This document shows positions 13,350 through 48,281 of a stretch of DNA of 51,399 nucleotides, piece by piece (positions within the stretch are counted from its first letter, which is position 1; each line of letters starts with the position of its first letter). The DNA comes from Candidatus Moranbacteria bacterium UBA1362. GTDB lineage: Bacteria > Patescibacteriota > Minisyncoccia > Moranbacterales > GWC2-37-73. The translations under genes were made by a program, and so were the position numbers. Location of the stretch: NCBI GenBank assembly GCA_002306085.1, contig DBRS01000008.1:1-51399 (forward strand), in the 5' to 3' direction. Below the pieces are notes generated by a model. That model was given only the letters and a program-made list of their open reading frames with translations. It had not been told where the DNA came from and ran no database searches.

Positions 13350-13465
13350 AATATTTTCCCTACTAACTTTCTAATCTTTTACTAATATACCGATAAAAAC
13401 TTTTATAAGTATATTCAAAAATGATTAGTAATTTAGTTGATATTATTAAAATTAATTTAAATTTA

Positions 13466-13984: not shown

Positions 13985-14098
13985 ATTCTAACGAATTACG
14001 AATCTATTACAAATTTACGTAGCTATGAAAAGTACAAAATTTTAAAAATTTATTTGTACATTTGTAAATTTGTAATCAATTTGTATTTTCGTAATAAA
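13985..14098. repeat. Periodic (about 8-nt) imperfect palindrome, family C
   Basis: ACGAATT/TACAAAT units on the left, ATTTGTA/TTCGTA units on the right; 26/30 identity to 45777-45806 in inverted orientation. Confidence 0.75.
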
Positions 14099-14210
14099 TT
14101 AAAAAATCTGCGTTTCCGCAGATCGACCTTTGAAACCGCAAAGCGCAGATGCGCTTGCGGACTCCTCGGCAGGACTTAAATAAAATTAATGCCTGCTGTC
14201 TGCGGAAATA
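14099..14210 (-). ncRNA. L10 ribosomal-protein leader with attenuator terminator
   Basis: Minus strand CCGCAGACAGCAGGC...UUAAGUCCUGCCGAGG matches the L10-leader consensus; followed by GAUCUGCG-GAAA-CGCAGAUUUUUU, upstream of rplJ. Confidence 0.88.
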
Positions 14211-14237
14211 ATCTATTAAATTGACCCCTTATCTAAA

Positions 14238-21137: not shown

Positions 21138-21245
21138 GAATTTGGATTCACGAATCAAACCCTAATTATATCCGAACATCTTGAATACATTCCAAACATC
21201 CGCGATTATTAGTGAAAAATTCGTGCAGATTAGCAATTTATATCC

Positions 21246-22511
21246 TCAATGCACGGCGCAGCTTATGCAGGGATCATACGCGCGGATGAACGCGCGCATC
21301 TTTTTTTCTCTTACCTTTTCATCCTTTTCATCAAGTATCCCCGGAATGAACGCCGCGATGTCGTCTTCAAGGTGCGTCAAAAATTGCGCAGTGGGCGTTA
21401 TAATATTAACGCCCTTTATATATCCTTTGAAGTCAACATCAACCCAATAATACAGCGTTCCGCGCGGAGCTTCAACCGCGGCCGCTGCCTGCCCTTCCCG
21501 GACTTCATATTTCTTTGTCAACGCATTTTTAAGATCCGAATGCCCGAGTTCTCTCAGAAGTTTTGTTGAATCCTCAATGCAATGAATTATTTCAACCATT
21601 TGATAGAGCACGTTATGAAAAGGATTAAAGTCCGGATTCTTGAAATTAAGCGAACTGAGAAAATGGCGCGCCCGCATGCTGAGTTTCTCGCCTTGATTAT
21701 TGACCCTTGCGATTGCGCCCACCATATAACTCGTCCTTCCGTCTCTCATCACTCTTTTTATCATTTCTTTGGGTCTTTGGAATTCATGAAATCTGTCTTC
21801 GAAATTATCCGCCTTGACGTGAAGACCCTTGTTCGATGTTATATTCCCATCGTAAATTGCATATTCGCCTTTCTTGTAGAGACTGACATATTCCGTCGGA
21901 CGTGAAAATTCCGGAAGCTTTATTTTCTTGAAAAAATTTCCAAGCTCCATAGCCACAGGCAAAATTTCTTCGCCTTTCACTATCAATTCCCTTATTTCCT
22001 CCAATGTTGGAACTTTTTTGAACCCGCCGACTTCATTCGTAAGCGGATGCACAACTCTGCCCCCGATTGTTCTCACAAGATCCATCCCGTATTCCCGGAT
22101 TTTGATGGCTTTTTTCGTTTCCTCCGGATATTCTTTCACGAGATTAAGGTCATTTTCAATATCAAGAAAATCCGCCAGCGACAAAAAGAAAAGATGAAGC
22201 GCATGCGAGTGGATAAATTGCGCATGTTCCATGACTTTCCGAAGCTTTATGGCCTCTTCGCTGACCTTAACCTTCATCGCGTTTTCGATCGCTTTTATCG
22301 AAGTAAGATTGTGCACAACCGGACATATTCCGCAGATCCTCTGCGCCACAATGGGCATGTCTTTATAGTGTCTGCCGATAAGAATCCCTTCTATAAGCCG
22401 AACTCCCTCTCTCACCTCAATTTTCGCCGACTTAACGTCGCCCCTGAGCACGCTTGCCATAAAACCCGCGTGTCCTTCAATTTTTGCAATATGATTTATC
22501 TGAATTTTCAT
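21246..22511 (-). CDS. [NiFe]-hydrogenase large subunit (group 3b-like)
   Basis: KIEGH, L1 motif RICGICPVVH, EAPRG, and L2 motif DPCISCAVH directly followed by the stop. Confidence 0.95.
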   Translation of the reverse strand: MKIQINHIAKIEGHAGFMASVLRGDVKSAKIEVREGVRLIEGILIGRHYKDMPIVAQRICGICPVVHNLTSIKAIENAMKVKVSEEAIKLRKVMEHAQFIHSHALHLFFLSLADFLDIENDLNLVKEYPEETKKAIKIREYGMDLVRTIGGRVVHPLTNEVGGFKKVPTLEEIRELIVKGEEILPVAMELGNFFKKIKLPEFSRPTEYVSLYKKGEYAIYDGNITSNKGLHVKADNFEDRFHEFQRPKEMIKRVMRDGRTSYMVGAIARVNNQGEKLSMRARHFLSSLNFKNPDFNPFHNVLYQMVEIIHCIEDSTKLLRELGHSDLKNALTKKYEVREGQAAAAVEAPRGTLYYWVDVDFKGYIKGVNIITPTAQFLTHLEDDIAAFIPGILDEKDEKVREKKMRAFIRAYDPCISCAVH

Positions 22512-36226: not shown

Positions 36227-36661
36227 CTATTTGACTGTTCCTCCCGACTTAATAATAGCATTTTTAGCCGTTTCGGAAAGGAAAATGCCTTTTTCAATCG
36301 AAAGTTTTTTTGTGAGCTTTCCCGTACCAAGAATCTTTATGGCGTTTTTTGCAACGTTATTTCTGATTACTTTCGCCTCCAACAAGGTCTTTTTTGAAAT
36401 TTCATCTCCGTTCTTAAATCTCTTTTCCAGGTCGCTCAGATTGATTGCAAAGTTTTTTGGTTTGCGAGATTTGAATCCCCTGATTTTTTTGAGTCTCATG
36501 ACAAGGGTCGATCTTCCTCCTTCAAACAAAGGATCTATCGATCCACCCGATCTCGCCTTCTGTCCCTTATTTCCCCTGCCTGAATATGTACCTCTCTTGC
36601 CTCCTCGCCCGACAGTCTTTCTCCTTTTGCGTTTTATTGTGTTGAGTTCGTGAATCTGCAT
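36227..36661 (-). CDS. rplO: 50S ribosomal protein uL15
   Basis: GRG...GRGNKGQKARSG and FEGG. Confidence 0.97.
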   Translation of the reverse strand: MQIHELNTIKRKRRKTVGRGGKRGTYSGRGNKGQKARSGGSIDPLFEGGRSTLVMRLKKIRGFKSRKPKNFAINLSDLEKRFKNGDEISKKTLLEAKVIRNNVAKNAIKILGTGKLTKKLSIEKGIFLSETAKNAIIKSGGTVK

Positions 36662-36727
36662 AATTTTAATTCTAACTGTTCTAATTGTTCTATGTTCTAA
36701 TGATTTTTATCTAAACAATTTAGATAT

Positions 36728-37216
36728 CTATTTCTCGTTTTTAACACGCGGTGCTTTCAAGCTCTTCAGCGCTTCAATCGTGGCCCTTGCCACGTTCAAT
36801 TTGTTTGAATTCCCGATGGATTTTGAAACTATGTCTCTAACTCCTGCCAGATCTACAACAGCTCTTACAGCTCCTCCGGCAATAACGCCGCGCCCTTCAG
36901 AAGCTGGCTTGAGAAGTATTTTCGCGCTTCCCAATTTCATCTCCACATCATGAGAAATCGTATTGCCGGAAAGTTTCACATTGATCATGGATTTTTTCGC
37001 ATCATTATAAGCCTTCCGAATGGCATCAGAGACGTCAGCTCCTTTTGCCACACCGACCCCGACCTTGCCTTTCCTGTCGCCAATTACAAGAGTCGCGCGA
37101 AACCTGAACCTGCGCCCTCCTTTGACAACACGAGTCACGCGTGCCAAGTCCAAAAGTTTCTGTTCAAACTCCGGCTTTTCGCGCCTCATATTCTTTTTTC
37201 CTAGTTTCTTATTCAT
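36728..37216 (-). CDS. rpsE: 30S ribosomal protein uS5
   Basis: RVTRVVKGGRRFRF and GVIAGG. Confidence 0.98.
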   Translation of the reverse strand: MNKKLGKKNMRREKPEFEQKLLDLARVTRVVKGGRRFRFRATLVIGDRKGKVGVGVAKGADVSDAIRKAYNDAKKSMINVKLSGNTISHDVEMKLGSAKILLKPASEGRGVIAGGAVRAVVDLAGVRDIVSKSIGNSNKLNVARATIEALKSLKAPRVKNEK

Positions 37217-37319
37217 ATGTGTATATAATCTCTAATCTACACTAATTTTATCACTAATTATCTCTAATGCATTTATTCGCAATTTCGCACAGAATTCGAA
37301 AGATTCGCGATTTTTATCC
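37217..37319. repeat. Family A spacer element, copy 1 (rplR-rpsE)
   Basis: TCTCTAATCTACACTAATTTTATCACTAATTATCTCTAAT arm plus an ATTCG-periodic arm. Confidence 0.85.
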
Positions 37320-37670
37320 TCAGAATCCCAACCCTTCTTCTCTGGCTCCTTCCGCCAAAGCCTTGATTTTTCCATGATATTTATAGCCGGCCCTGTCGAA
37401 TACAACGGATTTTATCTTCTTTTCTTTACATTTTTTTCCGATAAGCTTCCCTACTTCTTTTGCCCCCTCAACATTATCCGACACTTTTTTAATCCCAAGG
37501 GTACTGACACTTACAAGAGTCTTTCCGGACGTATCATTAATAACTTGCGCATATATGCCACGCAAACTTTTAAATACCGAAAGACGAGGCCTTTCTTTTG
37601 TGCCTGAAATCTTCGCACGTATCCTGCGCTTCCTATGCAATCTTAATTTGTTGTTACTTGTCTTTTTCAT
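37320..37670 (-). CDS. rplR: 50S ribosomal protein uL18
   Basis: [19 protein letters not shown] and AREEGL. Confidence 0.98.
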
Positions 37671-37754
37671 AATTTTACCGATGCGAAACTATAAATTAAA
37701 CGCGGTTCTACGAAACTTTTTGAATGTGCGCTTTCGTAGAAGCGCTTTCAGATA

Positions 37755-38291
37755 CTATTTAGCCGATTTCTTTCCTTCTTTTCTTCTCACATGTTCACCC
37801 GAGTATTTAAAGCCCTTTCCTTTGTAAGGCTCAACCGGCTTCGATGCTCTTATATCTGCGGCAAATTGCCCAACCTTACTTTTATCTATACCGGATACGG
37901 TCATCACATTACCTTCGATCGCAACAGTGATTCCTTCAGGAATATCGACAGCAACAGGATGCGAAAATCCGAGAGCCAAATTAATTTTCTTACCAGCAAG
38001 AGACATGCGAAAACCGACTCCGTTGAGCTCAAGCTGCTTCTTAAAACCATTGGTAACCCCTTCAATCATTCCCTCTATGATTCTAGCGGTAGTACCCCAT
38101 ATAGCAGGCACTTTCTTGCCTTTGCCTTTCTTTTCAACGATGACATCTGCTTCGGAAATTTTAACCGACACATTTCTGTCATATTTAAAATTGAGAGTTC
38201 CTTTTGGGCCCTTCACAACAACAACATTCTTATCAACCGTAATGCTGACTCCCTGCGGTATACTGATTGGTTTTTTTCCTATTCTTGACAT
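37755..38291 (-). CDS. rplF: 50S ribosomal protein uL6
   Basis: MSRIGKKPI and EPYKGKG. Confidence 0.98.
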   Translation of the reverse strand: MSRIGKKPISIPQGVSITVDKNVVVVKGPKGTLNFKYDRNVSVKISEADVIVEKKGKGKKVPAIWGTTARIIEGMIEGVTNGFKKQLELNGVGFRMSLAGKKINLALGFSHPVAVDIPEGITVAIEGNVMTVSGIDKSKVGQFAADIRASKPVEPYKGKGFKYSGEHVRRKEGKKSAK

Positions 38292-38385
38292 ATATTTTTC
38301 TCTAATCTACGCTAATTTTATTATCTTCACCACGTTTATTTGCGATTATTCGAACTAAATTCATGTTGATTCATGACTTCTATTC
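38292..38385. repeat. Family A spacer element, copy 2 (rpsH-rplF)
   Basis: Same arms; 33-nt identity with copy 7 including the start-codon region. Confidence 0.85.
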
Positions 38386-38790
38386 TTACCAAACCTCGCA
38401 AATCACTTCTCCTCCAAATCCGGATTTTTTTGCTTCGTCTCCAGTCATTATCCCCTTGGATGTCGAGATTATCGAGATTCCGTATCCGTTCTTGACTCTT
38501 TTTATCCCGCTCTTTCTTACATAAATGCGTTGTCCCTGATGGCTGACTCTCCTGATTTCGCGTATAGCCGGATTTTTTTCAGTGTTTGAAACCGTCTCAT
38601 ACTTTAGAGCTATCTTAATGATTTGCTTGCCGTCATTTTCTTCCTGTTTGACCGAATCTATGAAATTTCTTTGCTCTAAGATCTTAGCAATGGACATTTT
38701 CAGCTTCGAAAAAGGCACGGCAACTTCATTGTGCCTTGCTCTTTGCGCATTCCGTATTCTTGTGAGCATGTCTGATATTGGATCTAGCAT
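38386..38790 (-). CDS. rpsH: 30S ribosomal protein uS8
   Basis: DPISDMLTRIRNA and STSKG; start placed at ATG 38790. Confidence 0.98.
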   Translation of the reverse strand: MLDPISDMLTRIRNAQRARHNEVAVPFSKLKMSIAKILEQRNFIDSVKQEENDGKQIIKIALKYETVSNTEKNPAIREIRRVSHQGQRIYVRKSGIKRVKNGYGISIISTSKGIMTGDEAKKSGFGGEVICEVW

Positions 38791-38910
38791 ATTCTTATAA
38801 TTCAAAATTTAAATCTCAATGTAAAATTTTCATGTCGCTTCGCAACAACATCAAACATTCATGAGCGAAGCAAATACTGAAATATAATTTTTAATTTTTG
38901 GGTTTATTTA

Positions 38911-39096
38911 TTACCAGCTGCTTTTTTTGACTCCGGGAAGCTCTCCTTTGCTTGCCAGTTCCCTGAAACATATTCTGCAGATATCAAAAGCGCGAAGATA
39001 TCCATGCTTACGCCCGCACCTCCAGCATCTGCGGACAATGCGGGTTGAAAATTTGGGTTTCTTCTTGGCTCTAGCTGCTGTTGATGTCTTCGCCAT
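38911..39096 (-). CDS. rpsZ: 30S ribosomal protein uS14, zinc-binding type Z
   Basis: RCxxCGR...CRICFRE and LPGVKKSSW. Confidence 0.97.
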
Positions 39097-39189
39097 AATA
39101 TAATTAATTCTCTCCTACAAATGATTCAGTTATATTTATTGATTAGAATGTCATTCGTAGGTCGGTGTTATTTACAATTTTATTATTTT

Positions 39190-39744
39190 TCATTCTTTAT
39201 CGGACTTCATCGGAAATCCCAGCAATTTGAACAGTTCCAATCCTTCTTCATGTGAATTCGCATTTGTTGAAATCGTAACCTGCAAACCGAAAATGTTCCT
39301 AACCTTTTCGGGAGAAATCTCCGGAAAAATTATATGCTCTCTTATGCCTATATTCAGATTTCCCTTGCTGTCAACGGCTTTCTCGCTAATCCCCTGGAAA
39401 TCCCTGGTCCTGGGAAGAGTCGCGTTGATGAGCCTGTCAATAAATTGCCACATGCGAGCTCCTCTCATAGTAACCTTCACTCCTATCTCCATATTTTCTC
39501 TCACTTTAAATCCGGAAATTGCTTTTTTCGCTTTTGTCCTGACTGGTTTTTGGCCAGTAATAGCAGCCACAGAACTTGCCACTTCTTCGACTTTTTCACC
39601 TTCTTTTGCAAACTTTCCTATTCCAACATTAACAACAACCTTACCGATACGAGGTACTGCCATCGGACCCTTGTAACCAAATTTCTTTCTCATTTCTTCA
39701 ACAACGATCTTCGAATATTTTTCTTTTGCTGGAGTAATGTTCAT
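39190..39744 (-). CDS. rplE: 50S ribosomal protein uL5
   Basis: ITGQKP, AKKAISGFKVRE and PRTRDFQG. Confidence 0.98.
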   Translation of the reverse strand: MNITPAKEKYSKIVVEEMRKKFGYKGPMAVPRIGKVVVNVGIGKFAKEGEKVEEVASSVAAITGQKPVRTKAKKAISGFKVRENMEIGVKVTMRGARMWQFIDRLINATLPRTRDFQGISEKAVDSKGNLNIGIREHIIFPEISPEKVRNIFGLQVTISTNANSHEEGLELFKLLGFPMKSDKE

Positions 39745-39909
39745 GTCTTTCTTTGTGAGCTACGAGTCCGTACGAATGTACAAATTCATCGCCCATATCC
39801 AATTGTCCTATTAAAACTTCTTGTTATTCGTTAATTATATTAATCTCACATTGGTATATTCGCATTGATTCGCCTGCTCGCTCGGTAGGCAGATAATTCA
39901 CAGAAACTG

Positions 39910-40215
39910 TCAAAATTCTTTTTTACATTTTTTACAAATGCGGGTTTTCTTATTCTCAGTTGAGATATATCCTATCCTTGTAGCCTTGCCGCAAGAGGGA
40001 CAGATAACCATAACATTTGAAGCATCAAATGGAGCAAAAATTTCAACGCGCTGTCCACGCTCTCCCTGCCTGCGCGGCTTCGAATGTTTCTGAACAATGT
40101 TCATTTTTTCCACGACAATCTTGCCTTCCCTGGGAAGAACTCTTATTACTTTTCCTTCTTTCCCCCTATCCTTCCCCGCAATCTTTTTTATTGTATCTCC
40201 TTTCTTGATGCGCAT
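39910..40215 (-). CDS. rplX: 50S ribosomal protein uL24
   Basis: IKKGD-x-V/I-x2-IAGKDRGK and SNVM. Confidence 0.98.
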   Translation of the reverse strand: MRIKKGDTIKKIAGKDRGKEGKVIRVLPREGKIVVEKMNIVQKHSKPRRQGERGQRVEIFAPFDASNVMVICPSCGKATRIGYISTENKKTRICKKCKKEF

Positions 40216-40318
40216 AATTTTCTCTATATATAATCAACACTAATTTATCACTAATTATCTTTAATGTTTTATTCGCGATTATTCGGAATAAATCCGAGTA
40301 AATTCACAAACCATTGTC
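40216..40318. repeat. Family A spacer element, copy 3 (rplN-rplX)
   Basis: CACTAATTTATCACTAATTATC arm plus TTATTCGCGATTATTCG arm. Confidence 0.85.
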
Positions 40319-40684
40319 CTATAACACTTCCGGCGCCAATGATACTATTTTTGTGTAGCCTCTTTCTCTGAGCTCTCTTGCCACCGGTCCGAAAATTCTT
40401 GTTCCCTTCAGCTCTGTTCCATCCAGAATCACCGCCGCATTTTCATCGAATTTTATGTACGATCCGTCTTTTCTGCGAAGCGGTTTGCTCTGCCTCACTA
40501 TCACGGCCCTGACTTTATCGCCTTTTTTAACACTGCCACGCGGTTCTGAAGATTTAACACTGCATACAATAACATCTCCTATGTATGCATAGCGCCTTTT
40601 GCTTCCTCCAAGAACCTTGAAACACTCGAGAATTTTTGCTCCCGTATTGTCAGCTGCCTTCAATCTTGTTTCTGCCTGAATCAT
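40319..40684 (-). CDS. rplN: 50S ribosomal protein uL14
   Basis: [22 protein letters not shown] and SLAPEVL. Confidence 0.98.
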
Positions 40685-40778
40685 ATAGTTATTAACCTCT
40701 AATTTACACTAATTTTATCACTAATCATCTCCAATGTTTATTCGAAATTATTCGAAATAAATCCAATGGATTCGCGAG
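40685..40778. repeat. Family A spacer element, copy 4 (rpsQ-rplN)
   Basis: Same arms; shares AATGGATTCGCGAGTTAT (18 nt) with copy 5. Confidence 0.85.
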
Positions 40779-41009
40779 TTATAAAATCTTATGCCTCTTG
40801 TCCTTACTAATAGGTTTGCACTCGATGAATTCAACAACATCGCCTTTTTTGAATTTGTTCTCTTCGTCATGTACCTTGTATTTCTTGGTTGACTTATACT
40901 TCTTAAGGTATTTCTGATGAGTCTTCAATGATTGCGTGATAACTACGAGTGTTTTATTCCCGGCATCGCTTACAACTATTCCTTTTTTCTTGGCTATTTT
41001 CTTTGCCAT
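40779..41009 (-). CDS. rpsQ: 30S ribosomal protein uS17
   Basis: GxVVSD...KT, HDE and PISKxK. Confidence 0.96.
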   Translation of the reverse strand: MAKKIAKKKGIVVSDAGNKTLVVITQSLKTHQKYLKKYKSTKKYKVHDEENKFKKGDVVEFIECKPISKDKRHKIL

Positions 41010-41066
41010 AATGTCTTTGGACGAAGCGAGAAGCTTTTTGCAAACATCTCGCGCCGATCCGCTGAA

Positions 41067-41258
41067 TTATTTTACTTCTTTCTCTTTTAAAATCGTCAAT
41101 GCTTGCGCAATTTCTTTTCTAGTCTTCCTGTACTCCCTGTGATTCTTGATTTGCTTGGCTGAAATATCAAACCTGAGTTTCACGGACTGTGTCCGTTTTT
41201 CGCTGATGAACTTTTTCAGCTGTTCTATATTCATTTCTCTTATTTCTGATGCTTTCAT
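41067..41258 (-). CDS. rpmC: 50S ribosomal protein uL29
   Basis: MKASEIR...LRF...RKxIA-x2-LT, and its operon position. Confidence 0.92.
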   Translation of the reverse strand: MKASEIREMNIEQLKKFISEKRTQSVKLRFDISAKQIKNHREYRKTRKEIAQALTILKEKEVK

Positions 41259-41356
41259 ATTCTCTAATTTACGCTAATTTTATCACTAATCATCTCTAAT
41301 ATATTTGCAATTATTTTAGACAGGATTCGAATGGATTCGCGAGTTATTATCTGTCC
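41259..41356. repeat. Family A spacer element, copy 5 (rplP-rpmC)
   Basis: TCTCTAATTTACGCTAATTTTATCACTAATCATCTCTAAT arm plus GGATTCG arm. Confidence 0.85.
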
Positions 41357-41770
41357 TTACTTTTCCTTAACAACAATTTTTGTCTTAACACACAATTTAT
41401 GCGAAGCAAGTCTCAATGCTTCTCTGGCAACCGTTTCTGAAACTCCATCCATCTCAAACAACATTTTCCCCTGCTTTGTTTTGGCGACAAAATGGTCCAC
41501 ACTTCCTTTTCCTTTACCCATCGGAGTTTCGTCTCCCTTTTTTGTCATAGGCTTGTCGGGAAATATTCTTATCCAAATTTTTCCGCCTCTTTTAATATAC
41601 CTTGTCATAGCCCTTCTAGCAGCCTCAATCTGTCTTGCTGAAATAAGACCGGACGTTGTTGCCTGCAAGCCAAAACTGCCGAAACTTACAGCGTTTCCTT
41701 TCGTTGCAATCCCGCGGATTTCACCGCCTCGATGGATCTTTCTATGCTTTACTTTCTTTGGCATCAACAT
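41357..41770 (-). CDS. rplP: 50S ribosomal protein uL16
   Basis: [18 protein letters not shown] and MGKGKG. Confidence 0.98.
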
Positions 41771-41815
41771 ATATGTATATAATCTCTAACTATACTAATT
41801 TTATCACTAATTATT
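41771..41815. repeat. Family A spacer element, copy 6 (half element, rpsC-rplP)
   Basis: Only the start-proximal arm TCTCTAACTATACTAATTTTATCACTAATTAT is present. Confidence 0.75.
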
Positions 41816-42469
41816 TTAATTATTTTTATTCTCAAATATTTCCCCCTTATACAACCAGACTTTTACCCCTATCGCTCCGTATGTCGTAAATGCGGTGGCT
41901 CTCGCAAAATCAATGTCCGCGCGCAAAGTGTGAAGCGGAACAGTTCCCCTGGACAGCCACTCCCTTCTTGACATTTCTGCGCCTCCTAATCTTCCGGAAA
42001 CTTCAATTTTCACTCCTTTGATGCTCCTGTTTTTTTCAACCTGGTCGAGCATTGATTTAAGAACCCTCCTGAACGGAACCCGTTTTTCAAGCTGTTCCGC
42101 CACATTCTGAGCAACAAGAGAAGCGTTTTCCTCAAATTGCCTGACTTCCTGGGCCTCAATCTTAACATCAACCTTTTTTCCTTTGAAAAATTTCTCTTTT
42201 ATTGTCTGACCCATATCAGTTATGCCTGTTCCTCCTCTTCCAATCAGAACCCCGGGACGCGATGTTTTTATAATAAGCCTCAACACATTCGCGTTCCTTT
42301 CTATTTCAACATCGGCAATTGCAGCAGCTTTCCACTTTTTCATCACAAAATCGCGAATTTGCACGTCTTCCTTGAGTCTCTTCCTATAATCCCGTTCTGA
42401 AAACCACCTTGATTTCCAAGTTGTTGTTATACCTATTCTTAATCCTGCTGGATTTACTTTATGTCCCAT
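41816..42469 (-). CDS. rpsC: 30S ribosomal protein uS3
   Basis: MGHKVNP, RPGVLIG, GRLGGAE, PLHTLRADID and GVKVW. Confidence 0.98.
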   Translation of the reverse strand: MGHKVNPAGLRIGITTTWKSRWFSERDYRKRLKEDVQIRDFVMKKWKAAAIADVEIERNANVLRLIIKTSRPGVLIGRGGTGITDMGQTIKEKFFKGKKVDVKIEAQEVRQFEENASLVAQNVAEQLEKRVPFRRVLKSMLDQVEKNRSIKGVKIEVSGRLGGAEMSRREWLSRGTVPLHTLRADIDFARATAFTTYGAIGVKVWLYKGEIFENKNN

Positions 42470-42564
42470 GTTTGCTATCGCAGAATTACACAGAAATTTA
42501 CGTAATGACAGATAAAAACTCTGTACACCTGTCTATTCTGTTTTATTCCGCGTTAATTCTGTTA

Positions 42565-43131
42565 TTATACAGATTTTCTTTGAAAAACTTTTTTCAAAAA
42601 CCCACTTTCCTGCTTCCGACTTCCTCCCATGTCCTTTTTTACGATATCAGGCTTTTGGGAAGACTTATCATTGCTTTCTGCGATTATTTCTTCCTTTTCT
42701 GCTCGTGCCGCTTCTTCTTTTTCCATTTTTGCCCTTTCAGCTTCACGTTGCTTTCTCTCTTTTTCCATCTGCTCTTTAGTTTTCCTGTTTTTTCCTTCAA
42801 TCCTCTCTTCGAGTTCCATCACAATATGCGTTGTGCGTTTCAAAATCAAAGTTGCTCTTCCCTGCGCCCTCGGAAGCCATCTCTTCAGCCTTGGTCCTTC
42901 CCCCACAAGTATACTGCTGACATACATATTGTTTCTGTCCAAACCAAAATTATTTTCAGCATTCGCCAATGTGCTTTGAAGAAGCTTCTCAACCGGCGTT
43001 CCTGATCTTTTTATCAAATGCCTGAGATGAACAAGCGCCTCTTCAGCATCCATTCCCACAATACTGTCCGTAACCAAACGCACTTTCCTTGGGGCTATTC
43101 TTAAATTTTTCAGCGTAGCTGTGATTTTCAT
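42565..43131 (-). CDS. rplV: 50S ribosomal protein uL22 with a long charged C-terminal extension
   Basis: RIAPRKVRLV, ANAENN and PRAQGRA, plus about 70 extra residues. Confidence 0.96.
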   Translation of the reverse strand: MKITATLKNLRIAPRKVRLVTDSIVGMDAEEALVHLRHLIKRSGTPVEKLLQSTLANAENNFGLDRNNMYVSSILVGEGPRLKRWLPRAQGRATLILKRTTHIVMELEERIEGKNRKTKEQMEKERKQREAERAKMEKEEAARAEKEEIIAESNDKSSQKPDIVKKDMGGSRKQESGFLKKVFQRKSV

Positions 43132-43244
43132 ACAATATAATCCGATTCTATTAATTAATCCTGTCTACAAATACTTTTTTTAATTTTTCCGTTAATTACT
43201 TGCCTGTGATAAAGCGGAGACGCATTCGTAGATTTGAATCATTT

Positions 43245-43589
43245 TTATTTTTTGCCTTCCGACTTCGTCTCTTCTTTCGCAGCCTTGGCAACCTCCAGTT
43301 CTTTCTGTTTTGCAGCCAACTCCATTTCCTTCTGCATCTTTCCACCGTGTCTGGTGAATTTTCGCGTCGGAGAAAATTCTCCCAACCTGTGTCCCACCAT
43401 TTCTTCAGTCACATAGACTGAAACAAATTCTCTTCCGTTGTGAACTCCAAAAGTAAAACCTATCATTTCCGGAGAGATTGTGCAAGCTCTCGACCACGTT
43501 TTAATAACCCCTGATCCTGGCTTTGCATTCAGAACTTTCTTGAGAACTCTCTCGTCTACATATGGTCCTTTTTTTAGACTTCTTGACAT
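43245..43589 (-). CDS. rpsS: 30S ribosomal protein uS19
   Basis: [13 protein letters not shown] and MVGHRLGEF. Confidence 0.98.
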
Positions 43590-43690
43590 ATATTTTTCTC
43601 TAATCTACGCTAGTTTATCATTAATTATCTTCAATTCTTTTTATTCGTGATTATTCAAGACATAATTTGCGTTAATTTGTGATTTCTCTC
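43590..43690. repeat. Family A spacer element, copy 7 (rplB-rpsS)
   Basis: Same arms as copies 1-5. Confidence 0.85.
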
Positions 43691-44521
43691 TTACTTCTTA
43701 TGTCTTCTTTTTACTATAAATTTATCGCTATACTTTTTCTTTTTTCTCGTTTTCTTTCCAAGCGCCGGCTTTCCCCAAGGAGTTTTCGGGTTCTTCAAAC
43801 CGATTCCCTGTCTTCCTTCTCCTCCTCCATGCGGGTGATCAACCGGATTCATTGCGCTTCCGCGAACCGCAGGTCTTTTCCCCATCCATCTGCCTCTCCC
43901 GGCTTTTCCGATACTCATCGCTGAATGTTCAAAATTGCTTACTCTTCCAATCGTGGCGAAATTTTCGCTGCTTACCACTCTTATTTCTCCTGAAGGCATC
44001 TTTAGCTGCGCCATTTTTCCGTCAATAGCCCTGAGTGTTGCTCCACTTCCGGCACTCCTGATGATTTGCCCTCCTCTGCCGGAAATCAACTCCACATTTG
44101 AAACGATCGTACCGTAAGGAATATTTTTAAGAGCCGTTCTGTTGCCTTCCTTGATCGGCGCATTGAAAGACGACAAAATCTTTCCTCCCGCCTTCATTCC
44201 TTCTGTTGCCAGTATATATCTTTTGTCTCCATCATTATATGAAATCAAAGCTATCAAAGCACTCCTGTTTGGATCCTTTTCTATAGCAACGATCCTGCCT
44301 GGAATATCAAATTTCTGCTGTTTAAAATCAATAAGCCTGTAGCGTCTTTTGTGCCCGCCTCCCTGATGCCTTACCGCAATTTTTCCATTTGATCTTCCAG
44401 CCTTGTTTTTGATCGGAGCAAGCAAAGACTTCTCCGGCTTTTTATCGGTAAGTTCATCTGGCTTCACAATCGACATATTTCTTCTGCCAGCAGTATTCTT
44501 TTTGTAAACCTTTATGGACAT
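43691..44521 (-). CDS. rplB: 50S ribosomal protein uL2
   Basis: [15 protein letters not shown] and [13 protein letters not shown]. Confidence 0.99.
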
Positions 44522-44589
44522 ATGTTCTCTAATCTATTCTAATTTTACCATTAATTATCTCCAGCTTTTTTATTCGCTATTTCTATTCT
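44522..44589. repeat. Family A spacer element, copy 8 (rplW-rplB, truncated distal arm)
   Basis: TCTCTAATCTATTCTAATTTTACCATTAATTATCTCC then TTATTCGC. Confidence 0.8.
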
Positions 44590-44973
44590 CTATGCTCCTT
44601 TGAACAACTCTATTTTATCGCCTTTCTTTAATGTGACCGTCGCTTTTCTCATTCCTTGTTTTATCGCCAAATGTCTTCCGTATGATTTCATTTTCGCCTT
44701 GGTATTAACTACGGTGACTTTCTTCACTTTTACGTCATATATGCCTTCAATCGCCGTTTTTATCTGCTTTTTCGTTGCGCCCTTAGCAACCTTGAATGAA
44801 TATTTATCATTGCTGATAGCGCTGTGCGTCTTCTCCGTTATCCACGGCTCTACCAAAACCTTGCTGGAAATGGCAACATTGATGTCAAAAGCAGAGTTGT
44901 CTTCTTTTTTCGACAATTCTTTCGCAACCCTTTTTGCTTTTTTATCATCTCTCTTTGTTTCAACAATTGCCAT
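44590..44973 (-). CDS. rplW: 50S ribosomal protein uL23 with an N-terminal extension
   Basis: P-x-ITEK, ATKxQIKxAIE and KATVTLK. Confidence 0.95.
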   Translation of the reverse strand: MAIVETKRDDKKAKRVAKELSKKEDNSAFDINVAISSKVLVEPWITEKTHSAISNDKYSFKVAKGATKKQIKTAIEGIYDVKVKKVTVVNTKAKMKSYGRHLAIKQGMRKATVTLKKGDKIELFKGA

Positions 44974-45055
44974 AATATTATTCCTATCACAAATTAACTT
45001 TAATCTATAAATGAATTCTCACTAATCACTTGCGTTCATTGACAAATTGAAAGAA

Positions 45056-45691
45056 TTAGATCTTGTTGCCAAACTTCTTTTCCAGAAAATTTATCGATTC
45101 CTTGCTTAATAGCAAATATTTGTTATTTAGCAAATCCATTACATTCAAATCCTTTGTGAAAATATTTTTGACACTTCTGATGTTTCTGCTAGCCAAAACA
45201 CTTTCCTTTTCAGTGTCAGCAAAAGAAACCAAAACTTTGCCTTTAATCTTTAGTTTTTCCAGAATTCCCGCAAATGTTTTAGTTTTAGGCTTCTCCAGCT
45301 TCAGAAAATCCAATGCTATCAATTCCTTGCTTCGTAATTTATCGCTAAGCGCGATTCTTACGGCTTTCTGTTTCATTTTACTGTTCAGATTTCTCTTAAA
45401 ATTCCTTTCGCTTGTAGGTCCAAAAGATATTCCCCCGCCTTTCATTATCGGGTTTCTTTTCTGTCCTTGTCTGGCGCTTCCTGTTCCTTTTTGCCTAAAT
45501 GGTTTCTTTCCGCTTCCTGCCACTTGTCCCTTGCCTTTCGTATGTGCTATCGAACTTCTCTGATTCCCTGAAATCACCATGAAAACTTGATGGAGAAGCT
45601 TATCATTTTTCTTCTCATTGAAAACAGAATCTGAAACTTTCAGATCTTCAATTTTCTTGCCGTCAAAATTGTGAATAGCTATCGTTGCCAT
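45056..45691 (-). CDS. rplD: 50S ribosomal protein uL4
   Basis: TK-x3-V-x-GSGKKPFRQKGTGxAR and GG-x2-FGP. Confidence 0.97.
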   Translation of the reverse strand: MATIAIHNFDGKKIEDLKVSDSVFNEKKNDKLLHQVFMVISGNQRSSIAHTKGKGQVAGSGKKPFRQKGTGSARQGQKRNPIMKGGGISFGPTSERNFKRNLNSKMKQKAVRIALSDKLRSKELIALDFLKLEKPKTKTFAGILEKLKIKGKVLVSFADTEKESVLASRNIRSVKNIFTKDLNVMDLLNNKYLLLSKESINFLEKKFGNKI

Positions 45692-45811
45692 ATTTAATCT
45701 TTATATCTAACTAAAATACAAACCTCATTGCAAATTTACAAATATACGAAACGCTTTTAATTTGTTTTTATACATTCGCAAATCTGCAATTGATTCGTAA
45801 TTCGTTAGAGC
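45692..45811. repeat. Periodic imperfect palindrome, family C (rplC-rplD spacer)
   Basis: CAAAT/TACGAA units versus ATTCGCA/ATTCGTA units; inverted match to the rplJ element. Confidence 0.75.
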
Positions 45812-46372
45812 TTATCCTCTTATTTCAACTATTCTTCCGACAACTCCAGGCACTCCTCCGAGAACTGCCAAAATTTTTCTTTTTGGGTCTACATGGGCAA
45901 TTTTCATATTTTTCACGGTAACTCTTTCTCCTCCCATGCGCCCGGCCATCTTTTTCCCTTTGATAACATGCTGCGGCTGCTGCGCACCGATTGATCCGGG
46001 AGCCCTGTGATCATGCTTGTGGCCGTGTGTCTGCGGAGCTCCTTTAAAACCATGCCTTTTCATGGCGCCCTGGAAGCCCTTGGCTTTGGAAATTCCGCTT
46101 ACTTTCACAATGTCTCCAACTTGAAAATTTTCAACCGTAACTTTGCCGCCTATTTCTATCGATTCATCACTCTCAAGGCGAAATTCTTTGCGGTGAACTC
46201 GCTTTTTGGTTTTTAGAATCTCAAGCTGAACAGAAGAATAGCCGTTTTTCTCTTTGCTCCTTACGGCTGAAATGGTGTTTGGCTGACACTCAATTAGCGT
46301 CACACTCAAAGCCCCCTGTTTCTTGTCATACAGCGTCGTCATTCCCAATTTTTTTCCGAGGATACACTTCAT
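45812..46372 (-). CDS. rplC: 50S ribosomal protein uL3
   Basis: GKKLGMT, GYxxVQ, KAKGFQG, PGSIG and GKKMAGRMG. Confidence 0.97.
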   Translation of the reverse strand: MKCILGKKLGMTTLYDKKQGALSVTLIECQPNTISAVRSKEKNGYSSVQLEILKTKKRVHRKEFRLESDESIEIGGKVTVENFQVGDIVKVSGISKAKGFQGAMKRHGFKGAPQTHGHKHDHRAPGSIGAQQPQHVIKGKKMAGRMGGERVTVKNMKIAHVDPKRKILAVLGGVPGVVGRIVEIRG

Positions 46373-46465
46373 ATTCTCTAATCTACTCTAATTTATCATT
46401 AATTATCTCCAATTCTTTTTCGCGATTATCCAAAATACGATTCGCGTGGATTGGTGATTTTATCA
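46373..46465. repeat. Family A spacer element, copy 9 (upstream of rplC)
   Basis: TCTCTAATCTACTCTAATTTATCATTAATTATCTCCAAT arm plus TTCGCGATT/ATTCGCG arm. Confidence 0.85.
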
Positions 46466-46648
46466 ATAAAAATACTGGCCTCAAGCCAGCACATCAGGGT
46501 TAATCCTGATTAGCTAGTTGAGTATCCAGCTCTTTGCAAGCAAAGAAACTGGACTTTAACTAGTTGCATACTAATGCGAAACTGCGAATACTCTCCGAGC
46601 GAACACATAAGGCTTTTGGAGAGCGCTTTCGCGGCACGCTTTCAAATG
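46466..46648 (-). ncRNA. Candidate cis-regulatory leader/attenuator between rpsJ and rplC
   Basis: At least five hairpins, ending in GCUGGC-UUGAG-GCCAGU-AUUUUU. Confidence 0.55.
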
Positions 46649-46978
46649 CTACATCTTTATTTCTACATCAACCCCGGCAGGCAAATCCAAACTTGTCAGA
46701 TTTTCAATAGTCTTCGGTGTCGGATTCCAGATATCAATCAATCTTTTGTGGATTCTCATTTCATATTGATCGCGCGCGTCCTTATCCACGAATGTCGCTC
46801 TATTGACAGTAATCTTATGAATTTCCGTTGGAAGCGGAACCGGACCCGTTATTTTCGATCCTGATCTTTCCGCAGTTTCCACGATTTTGCGCGCTGATTG
46901 GTCTATAACCTTATTGTCGTACGCTTTAATCTTGATCCTGATTCTTGTTGATTGATCTGTGTCTTTTTTCGCAGCCAT
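46649..46978 (-). CDS. rpsJ: 30S ribosomal protein uS10
   Basis: [15 protein letters not shown] and HKRLIDI. Confidence 0.98.
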
Positions 46979-47049
46979 CGAGGTACTTTACTTCTTTTAA
47001 TAAATAACGACTTAATTTTTTAGCCACTTGTTGCATCAAGTGAACACAA

Positions 47050-47075
47050 GCAGACATATTGTACAATATGTCTGC
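47050..47075 (-). terminator. Perfect 26-nt palindrome after tuf (terminator or processing hairpin)
   Basis: GCAGACATATTGTACAATATGTCTGC; weak U-tract. Confidence 0.6.
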
Positions 47076-47090
47076 ATAGTTTACTCGAGG

Positions 47091-48281
47091 TTATTTTAGA
47101 ATCTTGGTTACTGCTCCCGCTCCCACAGTTTTTCCTCCTTCACGAATCGCAAATCGCATTCCTTCTGACATGGCAACCGGAGCAATAAGTTTAATCTTTA
47201 GGTTAACGGTATCTCCGGGCATAACCATTTCGGTTCCTTCCGGCAAAATAACTTCTCCCGTAACATCGGTTGTTCTCACATAAAACTGCGGCTTGTATCC
47301 TTTGAAAAATGGAGTATGCCTTCCGCCTTCTTCTTTTGTCAAAACGTATATTTCACCTTCAAATTCGGTGTGAGGAGTGATTGAGCCCGGTTTCGCAAGA
47401 ACCTGTCCGCGGGCAACATCTTCCTTCTTGATTCCGCGAAGCAGAAGTCCGGCATTATCGCCAGCTTGTCCTTTGTCGAGAGATTTATTGAACATTTCCA
47501 CTCCGGTAACAACTGTTTTTGTTGTAGGTTTAAGCCCGACAATTTCAACTTCCTCGTTCAAATTGATAACGCCACTCTCAATTCTTCCGGTAACAACAGT
47601 TCCGCGTCCTTCAATCGAAAAAATGTCTTCGATAGGCATAAGAAACGGCTTGTCAATGTCACGAACTGGTTCAGGAATCTTTGTATCAAGAGCCTGGATG
47701 AGTTCAAGTATGGGTTTAGCATCAGCATCATCAGCCGATTTGGCTTCAAGAGCCTTGAGAGCTGATCCTCGAACAACTGAAGCATTGTCACCATCAAATT
47801 CATATTTCGAAAGCAATTCTCTCACTTCTGCTTCAACAAGGTCAATAAGCTCAGGATCGTCAACCATATCAACTTTGTTGATGAAAACTACTATCGCAGG
47901 CACACCGATCTGGCGAGCCAAAAGTATATGCTCACGAGTCTGCGGCATAGGTCCATCAGTTGCGCTTACAACCAGAATTGACCCGTCCATCTGGGCAGCA
48001 CCCGTAATCATGTTCTTGATGTAGTCGGCGTGTCCGGGACAATCAACATGCGCATAGTGTCTTGTGTCAGATTCATATTCACAGTGCGATGTAGCAATGG
48101 TGATTCCACGCTCTTTTTCTTCCGGAGCATTATCGATTTCAGCAACATTTTTTTCTTTTGCAAAGCCCTTAAGGCTCAAGACATGCAAAATAGCCGCGGT
48201 AAGAGTGGTCTTGCCATGGTCGACATGTCCGATTGTTCCCACGTTCACATGGGATTTTGTTCGTTCAAATTTACCCGCCAT
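47091..48281 (-). CDS. tuf: Elongation factor Tu
   Basis: [25 protein letters not shown] and FAIREGG. Confidence 0.99.

Follow-up and report, generated by a model that had tools for sequence, protein, structure and literature searches.

Phased-arm repeats at ribosomal-protein gene junctions of a Moranbacteria genome as probable gene-less members of a PF13366-associated cassette

We analyzed a window of 51,399 nucleotides (nt) from Candidatus Moranbacteria bacterium UBA1362 (GenBank assembly GCA_002306085.1, contig DBRS01000008.1), in which the spacers between ribosomal-protein genes of the S10-spc cluster carry a repeated element made of two inverted arms, each built of short words in regular phase. 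It is probable, at roughly 0.68 by our own estimate, that the nine elements of this cluster, their siblings in the alpha operon and a set of diverged copies belong, as gene-less forms, to a cassette family that has such arms and is associated with a nuclease. The element class looks like an undescribed selfish or half-tamed repeat, not a purpose-built translation signal. A first-pass annotation of the same DNA had offered two possibilities, a standardized cassette for initiation, coupling or processing, and a non-autonomous mobile element at stop–start junctions. The second is borne out in good part, by filled and empty sites among relatives, exchanges of one family for another, swings in copy number, decayed copies, and arms that enclose GxxExxY genes in other genomes.

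A two-armed element between ribosomal-protein genes

The genome that carries the window comprises 911 kb in 24 contigs and is 96% complete; the window is its contig C1 (G000:C1). The S10-spc ribosomal-protein genes lie on the minus strand, from ~47.0 down to 36.7 kb of the window, and are separated by spacers of 45-276 nt, all of them unusually long. Bacterial ribosomal-protein operons are highly conserved, compact arrays in which junctions typically span a few bases. Genes were called, crudely, as the longest open reading frames (ORFs) starting with ATG. The nine spacers singled out earlier do hold one and the same element in a single orientation, the sense of the minus-strand mRNA, and are listed here with two further copies of the window.

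37217..37319, minus strand: copy 1, L18–S5 junction; full, with 5' CGAAU and 3' AUUAG arms; covariance model 37214-37318, 68.8 bits
38292..38385, minus strand: copy 2, S8–L6 junction; 3' arm minus one unit; covariance model 38289-38384, 47.5 bits
40216..40318, minus strand: copy 3, L14–L24 junction; full, last unit degraded; covariance model 80.5 bits
40685..40778, minus strand: copy 4, S17–L14 junction; full; covariance model 82.6 bits
41259..41356, minus strand: copy 5, L16–L29 junction; full, 3' arm ending 2 nt before the ATG; covariance model 75.4 bits
41771..41815, minus strand: copy 6, S3–L16 junction; 3' arm only; nhmmer 25.6 bits
43590..43690, minus strand: copy 7, L2–S19 junction; full, several G-to-A changes in the 5' arm; covariance model 71.5 bits
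44522..44589, minus strand: copy 8, L23–L2 junction; 3' arm, with the 5' arm truncated; nhmmer 35.7 bits
46373..46465, minus strand: copy 9, 3' part of the 276-nt S10–L3 spacer; full; covariance model 46361-46465, 81.9 bits
44974..45055, minus strand: decayed tenth copy, L4–L23 junction; GTGATTAGTGAG...ATAGATTAAAG...AATTTGTGATAGG
21140..21250, unstranded: diverged mosaic copy between the minus-strand hydrogenase and hypA-like genes; covariance model 36.9 bits

The general build is a pair of inverted arms, with four CNAAT words on the 5' side and four ATTNG words on the 3' side in a fixed phase of ~10-11 nt, and the stem stays in register across 44 positions. The 5' arm of the window element has four CGAAT words in the same phase as the 3' arm, whose consensus is ATTrGAGATrATTAGTGATAAAATTAGyGTAGATTAGAGA; its four ATTAGnG words stand ~11 nt apart, and in the nine copies the arm ends 2-15 nt before the downstream ATG. 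One arm had been described as more conserved, and the 3' arm is indeed somewhat better conserved (0.79 vs. 0.73 for the 5' arm; 1.59 vs. 1.37 bits per column), which is also the part retained in five truncated copies. Copy 6 is the single-arm (3') copy it was taken for, and copy 8 likewise consists mainly of the 3' arm. The stretch of 33 identical nt reported for copies 2 and 7 (38292 and 43590) is real and reaches 10 nt into both coding regions: rplF (L6) and rpsS (S19) are identical in their first 10 coding nt (ATGTCAAGAA; window 38282-38291 and 43580-43589), in direct continuation of the 23 nt matched within the element upstream. This shared start could be a gene-conversion tract that extends into the coding regions, or the chance agreement of two MSR- starts.

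When the whole genome was searched with nhmmer and a covariance model, three further copies were found in the alpha operon on contig C11, upstream of rplQ, rpsK and rpmJ. The covariance model also recovered diverged mosaic copies at nusG–rplK, rpmI–rplT, rpsF–ssb and rpsB–tsf, and others of this kind at rplI–pyrG (inverted), at two sites on C16 and at the hydrogenase–hypA-like junction listed above, ~7 in all. The hydrogenase–hypA-like junction of the relative G015 is likewise occupied by a copy. Rfam covariance models run on 36600-47100, at gathering thresholds and at E <= 5, returned one spurious intra-coding match and otherwise no known ribosomal-protein leader or other Rfam family in that interval.

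PF13366 genes within the arms and spacer turnover in relatives

The arms of the element recur around a gene in other genomes. In G042, the gene at G042:C94:12147-12521 encodes a 125-aa protein of family PF13366 (PD-(D/E)XK, GxxExxY; E = 2e-29) and is enclosed by ATAAATCTCTAATCGACACTAATTTTTCTCGAATAATCTCTAAT ... ATTCGCGATTATTAGTGATAATATTCGCGTTGATTAGGGA, a mosaic form of the window element's arms. Orthologues within arms of the same family were found at G015:C11 (84% identity), G026:C76 (70%) and G054:C4 (63%), and these four genomes span three family-level clades; the genes of G042 and G015 share a site, just upstream of nusB. Among 30 genomes searched with the G042 protein, all six that encode an orthologue of at least 60% identity have element copies, and none of the eight copy-less genomes encodes one. 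Neither PF13366 nor the G042 protein found any counterpart in the present genome, at its 96% completeness, so the window copies are orphan, gene-less members. No PF13366 gene was found in the sister genome G009 either.

The first-pass annotation had mentioned similar repeats around both GxxExxY and four-helix-bundle genes. The former link holds for the window element in the four genomes just named. PF05635 four-helix-bundle genes are abundant in relatives and lie within word-periodic inverted arms, but the 40 loci inspected all have other word families, and on these loci PF05635 was rejected as the partner of the present one. Across genomes, the number of filled spacers was weakly correlated with gene counts (rho 0.43 for PF05635, 0.35 for PF13366 and 0.58 for both combined, p = 0.03); element copies are not independent of one another, and P values are inflated accordingly. 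A parallel case comes from G006, whose dominant ribosomal-spacer family provides the arms of a PF13366 gene at G006:C16:35691. Further PF13366 genes have ACAAAT/ATTTGT or TACGAAT/ATTCGTA arms, families that occur in the present genome at L3–L4, L24–L5 and S16–L10. Neither the junction repeats nor the PF13366 arms are described in the literature consulted.

For the G006 family, ATCCGAAT...ATTAGGAT, we also noted its presence at at least 15 of the 18 S10-spc junctions of that genome (L073). The gene that it encloses, G006:C16:35691-36017, lies upstream of a NiFe-hydrogenase large-subunit gene, and this second pairing of gene and repeat has another locus at G014:C50:7157-7483.

The family is patchily distributed: it occurs in five family-level clades, with 14 positive genomes among the 33 of the taxonomic family and 23 among 151 sampled across the order. 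Copy number ranges from 0 to ~35 per genome, with ten-fold gaps between sister genomes; G015 and G042 had the most covariance-model matches, 71 and 61 with both strands counted, while the sister genome G009 had 7. Because the model matches either strand of the palindrome, such counts are roughly double the number of elements.

The first-pass annotation had also advised checking orthologous spacers for empty sites. In the 20 relatives in which we located the S10-spc cluster, spacers were bimodal, measuring either 1-40 nt ("empty") or ~85-190 nt ("filled", from stop to start codon), and they were nearly all empty in G002, G005 and G008 and nearly all filled in G006. Filled spacers belong to many unrelated word families and share one layout: stop codon, arm of periodic words, loop, complementary arm, ~5-15 A/T-rich nt and ATG. 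At L18–S5, the site of copy 1, four congeneric genomes (ribosomal proteins 93% identical) hold four different families; the window family itself occupies this junction in G015, G009 and G019. Different families likewise stand at several sites of G009 and G015 (93% identical), and the L29–S17 spacer measures 118 nt in G009 vs. 1 nt in G015, with no target duplication. A miniature inverted-repeat transposable element was therefore rejected: inverted arms are present, but the whole stop-to-start spacer is exchanged and no flank is duplicated. At L4–L23, an intact copy is found in G006, and G014, G019 and G023 retain just the last 20 nt (TTTAGAGATTTATTAAATAT), a deletion remnant. The copy in the S10–L3 spacer of G015 lies at the spacer's 5' end, 162 nt from the ATG, vs. 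the 3' part in the present genome.

Taken as a gene-less, nuclease-associated repeat, the element would have the following history. The full cassette would comprise a 125-aa PD-(D/E)XK GxxExxY gene (PF13366) between the arms, on which its protein probably acts. The nuclease, or host recombination, may copy the arms into transcribed, co-directional junctions, in a relation like that of RAYT to REPINs or of Ssn to NTS repeats, and spread could proceed by transposition-like copying or by allele replacement through the conserved flanking genes. As the comparisons above show, elements are present or absent at orthologous sites, are exchanged for other word families in congeners, and decay by deletion that spares the last ~20 nt before the ATG. 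Gene-less copies might be kept as nearly harmless, their sense RNA being A/U- and purine-rich, weakly folded and free of terminators. Folding back would set the upstream stop beside the downstream start and may leave downstream initiation intact without use of a Shine-Dalgarno (SD) sequence. Strong conservation of the arms and their enrichment in translation operons suggest that some copies may since have become important for expression.

Points against mobility and the alternative readings

Several observations weigh against a mobile origin. Movement has not been observed, and comparisons of filled with empty sites show no target-site duplication. Every one of the 12 strict copies here is found in a ribosomal-protein operon, and the diverged ones mostly adjoin translation genes, a concentration that counts against a random inserter because random insertion does not predict it. 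Of 312 strong copy pairs, 305 agree in their orientation to transcription. Arms are 73% (5') and 79% (3') identical between genera in which four-fold degenerate sites are saturated, at 34-39%; given that saturation, such identity is unlike a purely neutral relic, unless transfer was recent. The word positions keep their mismatch through base swaps, with G.A in 166 and U.C in 25 cases vs. G-C in 17 and U-A in 10, for an odds ratio of 24 over four word positions in 65 distinct, mutually dependent elements. This preservation hints at some constraint on the hairpin form; it is a hint and not proof, because copies are dependent and nested arm inversions would look alike. Lastly, local copies could not at present be mobilized in cis, as there is no GxxExxY gene here, and no biochemical activity of PF13366 proteins has been reported in print.

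Much of this evidence fits a cassette dedicated to translation-apparatus genes, for their post-transcriptional control or for initiation, a reading that is compatible with a mobile origin and that we consider rather unlikely. In such a cassette, the AUUAGnG array before the ATG would bind a trans-acting RNA-binding protein or the 30S subunit/S1, a common leader would coordinate SD-less ribosomal cistrons, and the 5' arm would serve as an anti-leader that tunes access. The confinement of strict copies to ribosomal operons, the diverged copies at nusG–rplK, rpmI–rplT, rpsF–ssb and rpsB–tsf, and the constant orientation all agree with it, as does the 3' arm, which is somewhat better conserved, preferentially kept with the last 20 nt and, upstream of S5, 86-93% identical at orthologous sites across genera with saturated four-fold sites. 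G015 and G042 share the translation bias: most of their copies adjoin translation genes, among them those at S12–S7, IF3–L35–L20, S6–ssb–S18, S16–L10 and L13–S9. However, these two genomes also have copies elsewhere, by groES, tpiA–fba, hrcA and others, and one G015 copy lies 162 nt from its ATG. Relatives whose spacers are empty (1-40 nt) express these genes with no such element, and no conserved regulon exists, as one junction may hold unrelated families in different congeners. Word-armed hairpins as a class are not ribosome-specific, and the CGAAT/ATTAG family nearly is: in this genome, 56 intergenic spacers reach a score of at least 35 (46 of them co-directional) and 113 a score of at least 30, and these spacers carry many word families and are spread over many operons, those of ATP synthase, gatC and fpg among them.

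Start codons add little to the case for a cassette. It had been pointed out that the starts behind the element have no SD; this is true, but it is not special to them, since SD-less starts prevail genome-wide. SD-like 4-mers at positions -20 to -4 were found in 7.8% of 630 genes vs. 8.4% in a control window, and over the whole genome A+T makes up 74% of the 20 nt before start codons. The 3' end of the 16S rRNA is canonical, with the CCUCC tail kept (GGATCACCTCCTTTCT), so that, with SD unused genome-wide, an altered anti-SD or an SD substitute was rejected. No complementarity between this 3' end and the element was found, and no candidate for a binding protein emerged.

We also asked how far the arms behave as an RNA hairpin. 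Their complementarity, with systematic G.A oppositions as originally described, is upheld by alignment and shuffle tests: the 5' arm matched the reverse complement of the 3' arm at z = 2-5.7 above shuffles, and when 21 full copies, drawn from five genomes, were aligned, 31 pairs of columns were Watson-Crick or G.U in 89.8% of cells, a value that dropped to 24-40% when one side was slid by 1-3 columns. Beyond these, G.A stands at about seven column pairs, in 9-18 of the 21 copies, and A.A or U.U at three, with the result that a mismatch breaks the helix every 4-6 bp. The 12 copies of this genome fold no better than dinucleotide shuffles (z +0.38 to -2.6); only ~3 of the 12 take the arm-arm helix as their minimum-energy structure, and RNAalifold found no consensus structure for the set. 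G015 copies do adopt the arm-arm fold, at -21.6 and -24.5 kcal/mol, and the antisense strand is about equal. Covariation over the 21 copies was at the level of shuffles (score 0.103 vs. 0.108; 382 of 500 shuffles reached the score), with double changes in only 3 pairs, and a structured cis-regulatory RNA maintained by compensatory change was rejected.

The G.A pattern itself had been read as a sign of function in the sense RNA, and this could not be established. In 91 hairpin-forming spacers of all families from 21 genomes, G.U was not in excess over A.C (157 vs. 172). Purine-purine mismatches far outnumber pyrimidine-pyrimidine ones in the same set, as expected because the coding strand is purine-rich. 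As antisense energies are similar and G.U does not exceed A.C, the argument for an RNA hairpin from G.A was dropped. Absent covariation, the lack of G.U excess and the weak fold also count against a control cassette and, as they give no sign that RNA pairing is selected, in favor of the gene-less repeat.

The fold bears on a further possibility, that the element is an mRNA counterpart of the intervening sequences of rRNA, in which RNase III would cut the arm helix to yield monocistronic mRNAs whose leaders are very short. The architecture of inverted arms, in which an ORF may be present or absent, does parallel 23S rRNA intervening sequences (PMC4990558), this genome encodes RNase III, and relatives often have genes for four-helix-bundle intervening-sequence proteins, whose periodic arms share words with some gene-less hairpins of ribosomal spacers. 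A stem that is rich in mismatches, rarely the minimum-energy fold and near zero in z would, however, be a poor substrate for RNase III; covariation is absent, and the cognate gene encodes a PD-(D/E)XK protein and not a four-helix bundle. We regard this processing scheme as very unlikely.

Still harder to credit is an array for protein binding at the DNA level, with inverted ATTMG words at each helical turn serving transcription or nucleoid organization. A phase of ~10.5-11 bp would place the words on one face of B-DNA, and both arms show the ATT[A/C]GnG word, on opposite strands. Against this, the element occurs strictly at junctions inside operons, between co-directional genes and in a single orientation, its sites differ from one congener to another, and by inspection no sigma-70-like -35/-10 pair fits the conserved part. 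A sigma-70 promoter or leaderless start in the 3' arm was likewise rejected by inspection, the hexamer spacing being unfit.

A bolder version of the nuclease-associated repeat, which we also consider rather unlikely, is that GxxExxY proteins and phased arms form a new nuclease-driven class that homes into stop–start junctions within operons that are conserved and strongly transcribed, and whose gene-less copies now serve Moranbacteria, after domestication, as standard, interchangeable leaders before ribosomal-protein cistrons without SD. A purine-purine (or pyrimidine-pyrimidine) mismatch per helical turn would then mark extruded hairpin or cruciform DNA for the nuclease.

Neighboring repeats, known systems and significance

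Three other spacers of the S10-spc cluster hold elements of different word families.

45692..45811, minus strand: hairpin of another family, L3–L4 junction; ACGAAU/AUUUGU words; -38.8 kcal/mol; arms like those of PF13366 genes at loci L133 and L134
39745..39909, minus strand: element of another family, L24–L5 junction; TACGAAU/AUUCGUA, large loop; homologous to the L18–S5 element of G017
42470..42564, minus strand: element of another family, L22–S3 junction; ACAGAAU/AUUCUGU; same family at other junctions of G011, G006 and G015

Elsewhere in the window (13350-13465 and 13985-14237), the L10–L7/L12 and S16–L10 junctions hold hairpins of further families, with ACTAAT/ATTAGT and ACAAAT/ATTTGT words, and the S16–L10 spacer has an additional GC-rich hairpin upstream of the word-armed ones. 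In all 20 relatives, even those whose other spacers are empty, a long spacer (113-318 nt) separates S10 from L3. Its 5' part in the window (46466-46648, minus strand) is a conserved structured stretch, CUAGUUAAAGUCC...GGAUACUCAACUAGCUAA, with no Rfam match, followed by a terminator-like hairpin and U-run (GCUGGCUUGAGGCCAGUAUUUUU).

The sole PF05635 gene of this genome is a pseudogene with one in-frame TAA (G000:C18:103300-104300). It lies between glycosyltransferase and holB-like genes within heptamer inverted arms (TGACGAA/TGACTAA ... TTCGTCA/TTTGTCA), and gene-less copies of its word family occur at atpD–atpC (C9:19893-20022) and at C20:19128-19255. Several PF05635 arms share words with gene-less ribosomal-spacer hairpins of the same or congeneric genomes, at G014:C2:4730-5032 (L123), G006:C20:1411-1689 (L121), and on C4 and C13 of G009 (L111 and L112); the shared families include GTTCTA/TAGAAC, CATAACG/CGTTACG and AAAATC/GATTTT. 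The RNase III gene is apparently split over the contig ends G000:C14:6-161 and C17:8-133, and for this reason C14 and C17 are probably adjacent. A Y1_Tnp gene of RAYT/IS200-like type (G000:C9:65750-66103, in a 230-aa frame) adjoins a tRNA gene and has its own inverted repeat of ~20 nt (AAAAGGGGTCAGGTACCTTTTTT / AAAAAAGGTACCTGACCCCTTTT), with a flank (AAAAGGGGTCAGGTACC...) unrelated to the element. A RAYT as mobilizer was rejected, as the Y1 flanks are unrelated and both G015, which has the most copies, and G054 are without Y1_Tnp.

Among known repeats, the REP/REPIN elements that Bertels & Rainey reportedly tied to RAYT (Y1) transposases in 2011 are the natural comparison. They too are short, imperfect, multi-copy intergenic palindromes within transcription units, with the presumed mobilizer, a single-copy gene, inside the same repeats and with orphan repeats in many genomes. 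The present family differs in that its gene encodes a 125-aa PD-(D/E)XK (PF13366) protein instead of a Y1 transposase, its arms are ~45 nt with four phased words vs. 20-35 nt in REP, and it fills stop-to-start junctions. ERIC/IRU elements are imperfect palindromes of ~100-127 bp (related ones 100-130 bp) in transcribed intergenic regions and operon junctions of enterobacteria, and they resemble the present element in size, imperfect palindromy, operon-junction location and presence/absence polymorphism between relatives. They lack phased pentamer words and are not concentrated in ribosomal operons, their sequence is unrelated, and ERIC is not known to have an associated gene. The free-standing homing endonuclease genes seg and mob of phage T4 sit between conserved phage genes and have one target site. 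The likeness lies in a small nuclease gene wedged, present or absent, among conserved co-directional genes, and whole-spacer replacement is consistent with co-conversion; unlike the present family, however, they have a single target, no enclosing repeat arms, and no dozens of gene-less copies at other junctions.

Small genes for Ssn GIY-YIG single-strand nucleases are tied to hundreds of NTS/SRM repeats (PMC11893778). As here, repeats surround genes and the pairing of nuclease and repeat differs by lineage (PMC11893778). The nuclease superfamily is another one, though; phased inverted arms enclose the PF13366 gene, and a bias toward junctions and ribosomal operons has not been described in the Ssn system. 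Finally, the 23S rRNA intervening sequences of Coxiella, Leptospira and Salmonella are hairpin inserts with or without an ORF (PMC4990558). Shared features are conserved transcribed hosts, an optional small ORF in the loop, short tandem stem repeats, sporadic occurrence and suspected horizontal spread. Those inserts lie inside rRNA helices, have long near-perfect stems cut by RNase III and go with four-helix-bundle S23p proteins, whereas the present family lies between protein genes and has a weak, mismatch-rich stem and a PD-(D/E)XK partner.

Nearly every ribosomal junction of this genome, and of a patchy set of related ultra-small bacteria, holds a repeat of ~100 nt. PF13366, a function-less family barely mentioned in print, gains a nucleic-acid partner that can be tested, and if the nuclease proves specific for sequence or structure, it may be of use as a tool. 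Such repeats are a possible origin for the long spacers in ribosomal operons of the candidate phyla radiation, and they offer a natural system for studying how insertions in essential operons are tolerated without SD use. If homing and domestication were both true, a selfish element would have rebuilt the architecture of ribosomal operons.

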